Source: an uncultured Clostridia bacterium (GTDB taxonomy: Bacteria > Bacillota > Clostridia > Christensenellales > UBA1242). From it: a DNA stretch of 64,000 nt. The notes below the pieces were generated by a model. It had not been told where the DNA came from, ran no database searches, and worked only from the letters and a program-made list of their open reading frames with translations. A program made the position numbers and the translations under genes. The DNA lies in NCBI GenBank assembly GCA_947589025.1, contig CANQAY010000003.1:24907-88906 (forward strand), written 5' to 3'. Shown piece by piece: positions 9,678-47,346 of the stretch; the stretch's first letter is position 1, and every line of letters starts with the position of its first letter.

Positions 9678-9956
9678 TTATTGATTATTTATTGCGTTAA
9701 CCAATTCGTTTAGCATCTTTTGTTGCTCACTATTTAAAAATGGAGTAATAGTTTGTTTTAAATTGTTAAGCGTGTTGGCGTTTAATTTCCCTTCTTTTTT
9801 TAGCCGTGCCGCCTCACTAAACAAGTTTTGCATAAGGCTGTTTTGATCCATATCCTTATATTTGTTAATCAGTTGTTCATATTCACGAACCTTATTCTTG
9901 TTTTCGTTAATAACGTTTTGGTTTTCTTCTGCAAAACTTTTAAAATCTCTTGGCAT
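9678..9956 (-). CDS. hypothetical small helical, Asn/Lys/Glu-rich protein
   Basis: 92-aa ORF in the track. No motif recognised. Divergent from the 10041 gene. Confidence 0.45.
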   Translation of the reverse strand: MPRDFKSFAEENQNVINENKNKVREYEQLINKYKDMDQNSLMQNLFSEAARLKKEGKLNANTLNNLKQTITPFLNSEQQKMLNELVNAINNQ

Positions 9957-44940: not shown

Positions 44941-45228
44941 ATGAATTTAACCGAGGAACAAGCATTAAATATTGCAAAAGATGTAGATAAAAGATTACCT
45001 AAATTTGCATATACTTTTAAGCCAGCAAGCGAAGTTGGGCTAGAGGGGTTTGATTGGGTGTTGTCTTTTGAAGTTAAATTGGAACAAGGCGGCAATGATA
45101 GTTACGATTTTTATTTTGGAGATGATAAATCTGAAATGTATCCATTAAAAAATTCGTTGCAACTAAAAATTGACATAACCAAAATTGTTGATGACGTTTT
45201 AAACCGCACCACCAATAACAACTTGTAA
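44941..45228 (+). CDS. hypothetical 95-aa protein, divergent from dinB
   Basis: GGAGGGG RBS. Upstream TTGACA (44889-44894), 17-nt spacer, TAAAAT. No motif recognised. Confidence 0.55.
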   Translation: MNLTEEQALNIAKDVDKRLPKFAYTFKPASEVGLEGFDWVLSFEVKLEQGGNDSYDFYFGDDKSEMYPLKNSLQLKIDITKIVDDVLNRTTNNNL

Positions 45229-45886: not shown

Positions 45887-45910
45887 AAAATTGCCATTTG
45901 GCAATTTTTT
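45886..45910. terminator. bidirectional terminator between engB and the convergent gene
   Basis: AAAATTGCC-attt-GGCAATTTT flanked by A/T runs. Confidence 0.75.
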
Positions 45911-46575
45911 TAACGGGTGTTAGTTGATTGTGGGCTAACGGCGGTTGGGTATAGTGGCAAATCAAACACGCCTGGGCAAACGCCTTCGTTTTGATAAGGT
46001 GTGCATGGTGGTATTGGGCAATAGCCATAACTTGGCACAAGCACATCAACCACTGCAACAACTTTTAAAATTGTTGTAACGCAAGCGTTAATTGTAAAGC
46101 CGTTTGTGGTTGGGTTAAAACTGCCCGCACCAACAACTGCGCTGCCAAATGCCACAACTTCAATTGGGGTTAAAGATGGCTGCGGAACATATAAAATAAC
46201 ATCTTGGTTTAAACTTATTGTTCCGGTTGCCGTGCCCGGCACATTGTTTGCATCGGTATATGTAACTGTTACAGGAATGTTAATTGTTGCTTGCACGCGT
46301 GAAAAGTTTGGCCTATCATCAAATCTTGTTATAACAAGGTTTGTTACGGTGGCAGTTCCTCCTAACGAATTTCCACTTATAAAAGTTAGCGGGTAGGTTG
46401 GGTTGGCAGGATTTTGATTGGTTAATGTAAGTGAATAATCTTCAATTTGAGATTGATTCATACATGCGTCAAAAACCTTTGTGGCTTGCAAACAAATCCT
46501 TTCACATAATCCGTTGGTTACATTGTTTGTCTGCCCAGGGAATATACCCGGCCTAGAATCAGTGTAAAATGACAT
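45910..46575 (-). CDS. hypothetical Cys-framed, Thr/Asn/Pro/Val-rich beta protein (orphan; possible spore or envelope structural protein)
   Basis: Strong AGGAGG RBS. The coding region is visibly more GC-rich than its neighbours. Cys clusters at both ends (CERICLQATKVFDAC; CPIPPCTPYQNEGVCPG). Confidence 0.6.
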   Translation of the reverse strand: MSFYTDSRPGIFPGQTNNVTNGLCERICLQATKVFDACMNQSQIEDYSLTLTNQNPANPTYPLTFISGNSLGGTATVTNLVITRFDDRPNFSRVQATINIPVTVTYTDANNVPGTATGTISLNQDVILYVPQPSLTPIEVVAFGSAVVGAGSFNPTTNGFTINACVTTILKVVAVVDVLVPSYGYCPIPPCTPYQNEGVCPGVFDLPLYPTAVSPQSTNTR

Positions 46576-46634
46576 TTTTTTATAAACCTCCTATGATATT
46601 AATATAATATTCATAGTTTTGTTTTTGTGTGAAT

Positions 46635-46717
46635 GGGGCGTTTGTAAACTTCGTTTAAAAATGTTTAGCCGCGCACGGCTAAACATTTGCGGGCGCAAAA
46701 GCGCCCGCAAACGCCCC
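46635..46717. other. GC-rich perfectly nested four-helix structured element (candidate ncRNA, leader or DNA cruciform site)
   Basis: P1 GGGGCGTTT/AAACGCCCC encloses hairpins of 5, 13 and 8 bp with 3-4 nt loops. There are 35 Watson-Crick pairs and no mismatch. See findings. Confidence 0.6.
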
Positions 46718-46743
46718 TAATTGTTTGACAAGTTTAAAAAAAA

Positions 46744-47346
46744 ATGATAATCTTAACAATAATGCTGTATGTTATTTTAATTTTAGTGGGCTTATCAATA
46801 TCAATATTGTTAGGCTTAACGGTTGGCGTAAACACATTGCCTTTCACTTTAGGTGAAATAATGCGTTGTGTGTTTGTTTCGTTTATTTTTCTGTTTGTAA
46901 TAGACCTTATTATTGCATTAATTGTTCGTTGGTTTTTGCCCAAAAAATTAACAAACCCCTTTTTAAAAATTTACACAGTGCATAACTGGGAGCGTAAATT
47001 TTACAATAAATTAGGCATTCGCATTTGGAAGGATAAGATACCCGAAGCAGGCAAATTTTTTGCCAATTTTGATAAAAGCAAGGTTAACAATATAAGCGAC
47101 AATAATCATCTTTACAAATTTATGCAAGAAACCATTTATGCCGAGCACATGCACTTTTTAAGTGCAATATTTGGGTTGCTTGTTGTGTTTGTTAATTTAA
47201 AGTTGTGGTATATTGTGGCTTTGCCGTTAATTATTGTTAATGCAATAATAAATTTAATGCCAGTAATGGTGCAGCGTTATAATAGGCCAAGGTTAATGCT
47301 AGCATATTTAAGGAACGAGCGCAACTTAACCCCAAAAGGAACATAA
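46744..47346 (+). CDS. membrane protein, possibly glycosyl-4,4'-diaponeurosporenoate acyltransferase-like family (tentative)
   Basis: TM helices plus W.RK.Y..LGIR.WKD..P and a C-terminal QRYNRPR motif that I associate with that family. Start uncertain (46744 or 46762). Confidence 0.45.
   Translation: MIILTIMLYVILILVGLSISILLGLTVGVNTLPFTLGEIMRCVFVSFIFLFVIDLIIALIVRWFLPKKLTNPFLKIYTVHNWERKFYNKLGIRIWKDKIPEAGKFFANFDKSKVNNISDNNHLYKFMQETIYAEHMHFLSAIFGLLVVFVNLKLWYIVALPLIIVNAIINLMPVMVQRYNRPRLMLAYLRNERNLTPKGT

Follow-up and report, generated by a model that had tools for sequence, protein, structure and literature searches.

Results

The locus and its compound palindrome

We analysed a 64,000-nucleotide stretch of DNA, referred to here as the window, from an uncultured Clostridia bacterium of the family UBA1242 (contig CANQAY010000003.1, assembly GCA_947589025.1). 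Between two divergent genes, one for a conserved Cys-rich protein of 221 amino acids and unknown function (45910..46575, minus strand) and one for a CrtO-like membrane acyltransferase matching PF18927 (46762..47346, plus strand), lies an 83-bp compound palindrome, at 46635..46717 and without strand, in which a closing stem encloses three hairpins. The comparisons described below suggest that this palindrome is a low-copy DNA repeat, one copy of a family of intergenic elements, and that it is most likely not an RNA gene.

The closing stem pairs a 5' arm, GGGGCGTTT (46635..46643), with a 3' arm, AAACGCCCC (46709..46717), over 9 bp, and gives the element an end resembling a terminal inverted repeat. 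The enclosed hairpins are named A, B and C in the order of the family, which corresponds to the minus-strand reading. Hairpin C (46645..46657) has a 5-bp stem and reads TAAAC-TTC-GTTTA on the plus strand, presenting a C-GAA-G triloop on the minus strand. Hairpin B (46659..46688), AAATGTTTAGCCG-cgca-CGGCTAAACATTT, has a perfect 13-bp stem with a 4-nt loop and a sequence that differs among copies, and hairpin A (46689..46708), GCGGGCGC-aaaa-GCGCCCGC, has an 8-bp stem made entirely of G and C with the loop AAAA. Together the four helices contain 35 Watson-Crick pairs and no G-U pair, leave 13 bases unpaired, and have a composition of 54% G+C. The minimum free energy (MFE) structure is this same four-helix fold on both strands, at -51.1 kcal/mol on each, so that sequence and predicted fold agree with the architecture given in the preliminary description of the element, as well as with its remarks that either strand should fold equally and that a DNA cruciform could form. 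Its description of the surroundings as almost pure A/T was overstated; the flanks are AT-rich, with 16-19% G+C.

The fold is far more stable than composition would predict. Z-scores are -7.60 for the plus strand and -6.47 for the minus strand, with none of 200 dinucleotide shuffles equally stable, and DNA parameters give -37.0 kcal/mol with a z-score of -7.3. The most stable 90-nt segment in the window is the element itself (-48.6 kcal/mol, against a mean of -13.7 and a standard deviation of 5.4), and among fold outliers corrected for G+C content in 1.3 Mb of related sequence it comes second (z -7.26). The window holds one copy only, with no further copies or half-sites. The window as a whole returned no Rfam families at the gathering score and no tRNA genes.

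A family of elements with the same architecture

Comparisons covered the 64 kb of the window and, for the related loci, which carry L-numbers, flanks of 10 kb; protein identities given below refer to the protein of the window. A structural detector without an energy threshold accepted a segment only if its closing stem was perfect and 7 bp or longer, the enclosed hairpins numbered exactly three, and no fewer than 80% of its bases were paired. Over 1.37 Mb it returned only six distinct elements; locally shuffled control sequence, 1.34 Mb in all, yielded none. With one additional truncated copy, the design therefore occurs as six complete elements and one partial element in five genomes of Candidatus Onthoplasma / family UBA1242. 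Candidatus Onthoplasma, placed in that family and in the order Christensenellales, is represented by two metagenome-assembled genomes (MAGs) of 0.79 and 0.92 Mb (PMC12306168).

The copies are 82 to 90 nt long and occupy three unrelated housekeeping loci. Four of the six complete copies (window, L020, L044a and L050a) lie upstream of the gene for the 221-residue protein. L050 has a second copy, L050b, found 13 nt 3' of a penicillin-binding protein (PBP) gene within the PBP-MurE spacer; its orthologue L044b is truncated by a contig end. The last, in the distant L096 (56% protein identity for the 221-residue protein), is an AT-rich version with 30% G+C between a UPF0102 gene and rplS. The spacer that hosts this copy, from the UPF0102/YraN-like gene to rplS (L096 15423-15947), is an unusually long AT-rich stretch of 525 nt, in which nothing else was identified.

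All copies start with GGGC or GGGG and finish with GCCC or CCCC, and the closing stems are perfect, with 9 to 14 bp, in all six complete copies. Every copy has three hairpins, with loops of 3 to 5 nt and at most two junction bases. The third hairpin, C, is the most uniform part of the design: AAAC/GTTT arms and a GNA/TNC triloop are present in seven of seven copies (that of L044b was read directly from its sequence), the triloop reading C-GNA-G on one strand or the other, as GAA, GGA or GCA. The two L050 copies stand at different loci, yet their closing stems agree in 11 of 12 positions and both have the hairpin-C motif; hairpins A and B differ. The six elements defied sequence alignment with MAFFT, and covariation among perfect hairpins that do not align would say no more than that each of them is a hairpin.

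In two independent assemblies a contig ends within a copy, at position 1 of L016 (window-type) and within positions 1-85 of L044 (copy b). These palindromes may break short-read assemblies, and for that reason copies may be under-represented in MAGs. Two further kinds of structured sequence came up in the survey. In L084, a distant relative of higher G+C content, a GC-rich hairpin fills most of an 86-nt stretch (9750-9835; core GGGGGCGGCGG...CCGCCGCCCCC, -58.5 kcal/mol) some 170 nt upstream of the orthologous gene; it does not have the three-hairpin design. The multi-hairpin outliers in L092, L093, L047, L055, L091, L041, L094 and L065 were, on inspection, set aside as ordinary tandem terminators.

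Presence and absence at the orthologous locus

Three other independent assemblies (L002, L003 and L110) carry an identical element, making four with the window. In a strain variant, L016 (98% protein identity), the contig starts within the element, and the covered part matches at 60 of 60 positions. The element is real and fixed in its species. Outside it, distribution is sporadic. An 82-nt element of the same design, with 64% sequence identity, sits at the same spot in L020 (95% protein identity), and 89-nt versions stand upstream of the same gene in L044 and L050 (81% protein identity). The corresponding spacers of L005 (87% protein identity), L008 and L011, of L017/L019 (96%) and of L079 (99% over 129 covered residues) have no element, nor do the orthologous loci of about 70 further species. 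Two of the three closest species lack it.

A neighbor-joining tree of the single gene gives the topology ((L019-, L020+), (window+, L079-)), with plus and minus marking presence and absence of the element, a pattern that calls for repeated gain or, alternatively, for an old insertion that was lost more than once. Part of the L019 spacer, GACGACGCTT...AAAACACCC, resembles a decayed remnant of a closing stem, and on this ground loss is favoured over gain, although the resemblance is only suggestive. The stretch concerned (L019 9944-9971, the same in L017 at about 2915-2945) reads TTAATTGACGACGCTTAAAACACCCTTA and has 36% G+C, compared with 7-23% in other empty spacers. It resembles what would result from joining both arms of the L020 closing stem, and may be a deletion scar.

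Pairing is kept while sequence changes

In the six complete elements, 220 pairs are Watson-Crick and one is G.T. Where related copies differ, differences tend to come in matched form. The closing stems of the window element and the L020 element show two mirrored changes, and hairpin B of L044a and L050a differs by one mirrored substitution and one mirrored indel. Hairpin C of L044 and L050 shows an exact loop inversion, TGC to GCA or the reverse, at both loci where the pair can be compared, and the hairpin-C loops of the window and L020, GAA and TCC, become more similar once one of them is inverted.

The window and L020 elements are 64% identical, close to the 65% of the left flank and well below the 88% of the flank that holds the promoter and untranslated region (UTR), and yet no pair is broken in the window element. 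Divergence to 64% with pairing intact is consistent with correction acting on DNA, and equally with very strong selection for pairing. Template switching between the arms of inverted repeats leads to homogenisation of arms and inversion of spacers, including exchange between C-GAA-G and C-TTC-G (PMC8604942), and has been put forward as the process that keeps inverted repeats perfect in the intergenic DNA of bacteria (PMC5941160). With its mirrored arm differences and exact spacer inversion, the element, as judged from sequence comparison, falls within the definition of a template-switch-maintained inverted repeat.

Two divergent promoters flank the element

The 221-residue protein has a putative promoter on the minus strand (46604..46633), with a -35 box TTCACA at 46633-46628, an 18-nt spacer and a -10 box TATTAT at 46609-46604, agreeing with consensus at 10 of 12 positions; 1 nt separates its -35 box from the element. 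The CrtO-like gene or operon has one on the plus strand (46725..46753), with a -35 box TTGACA at 46725-46730 beginning 7 nt past the element, a 17-nt spacer that contains an extended -10 TG at 46745-46746, and a -10 box TAATCT at 46748-46753. Both are kept in ten orthologous loci, those where a strict pattern finds them, as [TC]TCACA-18-TAnnAT and TTGAC[AG]-17-(TGn)TAnnnT, respectively. The former stands at a constant 54-59 nt from the ATG in loci with and without the element. The distance between the two -35 boxes in these ten loci varies from 13 to 212 nt, with 91 nt in the window and 97 nt in L020, and in element-free loci the spacer between promoters is unstructured AT-rich DNA.

Because both promoters flank the element and point away from it, neither should transcribe it. 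The element should therefore fill a gap, free of transcription from these promoters, between two back-to-back divergent units, and lie outside both flanking mRNAs. A role as 5' leader or riboswitch of the 45910..46575 gene, raised in the preliminary description, loses its footing here, since the conserved promoter of that gene is downstream of the element at a fixed distance from the ATG and since most orthologous loci, two of the three nearest species among them, have no element at all. The minus-strand TTGTTA/TAAACT motif on which that proposal drew does exist, with 8 of 12 consensus positions, and is not needed for explaining expression of the gene.

The extended -10 promoter of the CrtO-like gene, TTGACA-17-TGaTAATCT, ends 8 nt short of ATG 46762. 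Gene callers applied to independent assemblies use the ATG equivalent to 46762, and the resulting intergenic region measures 186 nt in L002 and L110. This codon is most likely the true start, in place of 46744 as taken initially, and the mRNA would appear to be nearly leaderless. ATG 46744 falls within the promoter spacer and is probably not a start.

The 221-residue protein is no orphan, as it had first been labelled: 3272 homologues are found at E<=1e-3, many of them 77-87% identical, in uncultured Clostridia. It matches no Pfam or PHROGs family, and its best match among PDB sequences is not significant (E 0.75). The sole family match is a weak sub-threshold one to the NCBIfam spore-coat protein BMQ_0737, an odd result in a lineage with genomes of about 0.8-0.9 Mb. 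Strong hairpins occur just past the 3' end of this gene in L052, L041, L040 and L088 (locus position about 10650). Elsewhere in the window, an open reading frame (ORF) of 95 codons at 44941-45228 (plus strand), between a dinB-like gene and an EngB/YsxC-type GTPase gene, matches nothing in Pfam, NCBIfam or PHROGs; in L016 and L017 an ORF of 88-95 codons adjoins the orthologous GTPase gene.

Tests against known classes

Searches of the window, L020, L044, L050 and L096 with cmscan against Rfam returned no match at the gathering score; the preliminary description had not recognised the element as a known RNA family either. At E<=10 the best sub-threshold match in the local region reached 21 bits, where the gathering score is 35 (E 0.12). 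ARAGORN reported no tRNA or tmRNA in the window. A tRNA-like cloverleaf is ruled out by this result and by loops of 3-4 nt, where a tRNA has anticodon and T loops of 7 nt. GGGGCTA, in the closing stems of L044 and L050, resembles a tRNA-Ala acceptor stem, a likeness that we take to be coincidence, as loops and arms are not tRNA-like. Nor is the element an intrinsic terminator, as the preliminary description had argued for both neighbouring genes: it is placed between the starts of two genes, the terminator scan has no entry there, and the element is followed by TAATTG when read on the plus strand and by ATTCAC on the minus.

Searches of viral, plasmid and metagenomic sequence were likewise negative. 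The element with its flanks had no blastn match to phages and plasmids. Two matches to window-type termini in viral contigs lacked nested hairpins, were set in non-palindromic sequence, and are attributed to chance; L050-type and L096-type termini gave no match in those contigs. In the JGI metagenomes, the conserved 5'-UTR pattern had zero matches, which means that the clade is not in that collection, and a protein-based scan recovered 11 loci with no new element.

Among classes of repetitive and mobile DNA, integron attC sites are excluded by perfect pairing without bulged bases and by housekeeping neighbours with no integrase among them. Palindrome-associated transposable elements (PATEs) derived from IS200/IS605 have imperfect subterminal hairpins at both ends and insert without duplication beside a fixed tetra- or pentanucleotide. 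That no duplication is seen would be consistent with this group, but the flank TTGGC|...|CAC recurs in only two to three of six copies, and perfect hairpins lying inside a closing stem are not typical of the group. It is not a repetitive extragenic palindromic sequence (REP) or REPIN, since it is an 83-nt multibranched unit with four perfect helices and not a single imperfect palindrome of about 20-40 nt, or a doublet of these. REP hairpins carry a conserved GTAG-type tetranucleotide at the 5' foot; GTAG is absent from either end of all copies, which begin with GGGC or GGGG, and none of the neighbours scanned in the window and in the flanks of related loci encodes a REP-associated tyrosine transposase (RAYT, a Y1 transposase). 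Terminal inverted repeats like those of a MITE (a miniature transposable element bounded by inverted repeats) are present, but the element does not qualify as a classical MITE, as no target-site duplication is seen, there is no single long stem-loop, and the copies compared do not appear similar along their full length. The defining tests of both REP and MITE having failed, the element is assigned to neither class.

Discussion

The explanation we favour is that the palindrome is a REP/MITE-like, low-copy, compound-palindrome DNA repeat kept perfect by a DNA-level process, and that it represents one copy of a previously undescribed intergenic family, which may be called the cloverleaf family, in Candidatus Onthoplasma and the family UBA1242 of gut Clostridia; we give this explanation a probability of roughly 0.58. 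A REP/MITE-like palindromic unit was among the roles listed in the preliminary description, and it is the one that the evidence supports. On this explanation the family would have spread by copying or transposition, present or past, without target-site duplication, probably relying on a trans-acting factor that reads the termini. The copy at the window locus would be old and would have been deleted in some sister species. Template switching within the palindrome during replication would copy a change in one arm to the other, or erase it, and would occasionally invert loops, so that sequence drifts at a roughly neutral intergenic rate while the architecture stays perfect.

At the window locus, no RNA would be made from the element by the two mapped promoters, and any local effect would be structural. 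The element would widen the -35 to -35 distance from 13-35 bp, as seen in five orthologues without it, to 91 bp, and would put a GC-rich palindrome in place of AT-rich upstream DNA. Divergent promoters create a negatively supercoiled zone between their polymerases under the twin-domain model, and in such a zone the palindrome could extrude as a cruciform.

Several observations weigh against this account. Copy number is low, one in the window's 64 kb and seven in 1.37 Mb, and the term repeat family rests on these few copies. The flanks show no consistent direct repeat that would mark a target-site duplication at any copy; the trinucleotide AAT on either side of the window element, offset by 1 nt, is what chance would produce in flanks of about 82% A+T. 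Neighbours of the copies, as scanned, include no transposase, recombinase or HUH gene. With neither a duplication nor a transposase identified, mobility is inferred and not shown. We found no strain-level pair of an empty and a filled site. L044a and L050a are 83% identical while their flanks are 62-67% identical, as would be compatible with purifying selection. Exactly three hairpins and the hairpin-C motif are kept across distant genomes, more than the decay of a simple selfish element would lead one to expect, and four of six complete copies, in two clades, stand upstream of the same conserved gene, which raises the prospect of a locus-specific function, although phylogenetically those four represent only one or two events. 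Weak alternative promoters that would read through the element were also found on both strands.

Some of these observations would be accommodated if the element were a functional cruciform or protein-binding operator regulating one or both divergent promoters, either by absorbing the negative supercoils that transcription generates or by binding a structure-specific or palindrome-specific protein. Such a role would suit an element that adjoins both -35 boxes, 1 nt from one and 7 nt from the other, that recurs upstream of one highly conserved gene, that is better kept than its flanks in the L044a/L050a pair, and whose perfect pairing on both strands is just what extrusion requires. We consider it unlikely all the same: most orthologous loci keep both promoters without any element, across spacers of 13-212 nt, copies occur also in non-promoter contexts (the PBP-MurE and UPF0102-rplS spacers), and the inner hairpin sequences vary, leaving no fixed operator sequence. 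The lack of target-site duplications would be expected, in turn, if the folded single strand were a DNA signal, the substrate of an HUH/Y1-type transposase or nuclease (IS200/IS605-like or RAYT-like), of a site-specific recombinase or of a primase, recognised by its cloverleaf shape and its C-GNA-G hairpin. C-GNA-G triloops, closed by a C-G pair, form unusually stable DNA mini-hairpins, and hairpin C has one in seven of seven copies. Termini conserved within a genome and different between genomes recall REP/RAYT systems, and the flanks TTGGC|...|CAC are common to L020 and L096 and partly shared by L044a (two to three of six copies). This would overlap with the explanation we favour, for which it would supply the mechanism of mobility. 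As a separate explanation it seems quite unlikely, given that no gene for such an enzyme was found near any copy and that orientation relative to the leading strand inferred from GC skew is not uniform, with only three independent sites and hence little information in the comparison.

A structured RNA is very unlikely, be it a cis-regulatory element (5' leader or riboswitch-like) belonging to a flanking gene or a small RNA in its own right, both of which the preliminary description had listed. The predicted fold is very stable, architecture is kept while sequence changes in a manner that formally resembles covariation, the weak promoter-like motifs mentioned above could read through it, and L050b and L044b lie inside an operon spacer, where they would be transcribed. 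Yet the conserved promoters put the window element outside both mRNAs, most orthologues lack it, no Rfam family matches it, and no terminator follows it. Structured RNAs usually have several percent of their pairs as G-U; here one G.T occurs in 221 pairs. The element folds equally on both strands, its orientation relative to local transcription varies by locus, and loop inversions and mirrored indels between orthologues are events of DNA. Least probable of all, in our judgment, is local growth of each palindrome de novo, in which template switching would repeatedly perfect and enlarge quasi-palindromes present by chance, none of them copied from one locus to another. Template switching can indeed extend and perfect inverted repeats, a closing stem packed with hairpins of minimal loop is a plausible end state, and copy number is low. 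Independent origins would not, however, predict closing stems that match at 11 of 12 positions between L050a and L050b at different loci, nor the features common to all copies: ends of GGGC...GCCC, a hairpin number of exactly three, and AAAC-GNA-GTTT in the third hairpin. No one- or two-hairpin intermediates were seen in 1.37 Mb, and the GC-rich composition is foreign to flanks of 16-19% G+C.

A more speculative proposal, to which we attach a low probability, is that the elements form a structure-defined class of DNA cloverleaf, in which a structure-specific enzyme or protein reads the GGGC-closed four-way junction together with the AAAC-GNA-GTTT hairpin. That factor might mobilise folded single-stranded DNA, or might use the cruciform as a supercoil sensor upstream of a conserved gene. 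Selection on the fold, in addition to template switching, would then keep three perfect hairpins across genera despite reductive pressure.

Small palindromic repeats such as REPs and MITEs are described mainly from Proteobacteria and a few Firmicutes, and are sequence-defined, single hairpins. The copies found here, under the repeat-family explanation favoured above, would make up a family recognisable almost solely by architecture, namely a closing stem around three perfect hairpins, one conserved triloop hairpin among them. They occur in gut Clostridia that are uncultured and whose genomes, at about 0.8-0.9 Mb, have little non-coding DNA. The mirrored arms and flipped loops would make the family a clean natural case of bacterial template-switch evolution acting on a multi-hairpin unit. 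Template switching can mimic RNA covariation, and may therefore mislead searches for noncoding RNA that depend on covariation or on GC-rich intergenic regions; in AT-rich genomes, such regions often turn out to be candidates for mobile or repetitive DNA (PMC6429828). Since MAG contigs end within two copies, elements of this kind may also add to the fragmentation of assemblies. Should a cognate enzyme exist, it would define a new system of mobile DNA, and a cruciform with a function would offer a rare example of supercoil sensitivity in an element between divergent promoters.

Comparison with known systems

Resemblances to several known systems are partial. Like REPs and REPINs, the element is a short, GC-rich, non-coding extragenic palindrome at housekeeping loci, with no target-site duplication and with termini homogeneous inside a genome and different between genomes. 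Those sequences, however, consist of one imperfect hairpin of about 20-40 nt, or of a doublet that forms one long hairpin, and have a GTAG-type head, tens to hundreds of copies per genome and a cognate RAYT gene, while the element is an 83-nt perfect four-helix unit with GGGC ends and a low copy number in the sequence covered. Bacterial MITEs (Correia/NEMIS, ERIC, RUP and RPE) are comparable in size, about 80-150 bp, in having terminal inverted repeats that pair end to end, in being non-autonomous and intergenic, and in presence/absence differences among related genomes. Classical MITEs form one long mismatched stem-loop, usually have TA-type duplications, and show full-length similarity between copies (PMC2229807), whereas the element is multi-branched and its copies share only the termini and one hairpin.

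Documented cases of inverted repeats maintained by template switching (PMC5941160, PMC8604942, PMC7202029) share with the element mirrored changes, loop inversion and perfect pairing without sequence conservation. Each of those is a lone inverted repeat; in the present element four such repeats, nested or adjacent, behave this way within one unit that was apparently copied between loci. The GC clusters, double-hairpin elements and repetitive hairpin-forming elements of mitochondria (PMC4478555, PMC2800124) are likewise GC-rich intergenic insertions in small, compact, AT-rich genomes, with presence/absence polymorphism and with structure better kept than sequence. They differ in being organellar, in having one or two hairpins and in their many copies, as against the few chromosomal copies found here. 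Judged by analogy, these GC-rich hairpin elements of AT-rich mitochondrial genomes would be the closest counterparts of the cloverleaf elements in behaviour.

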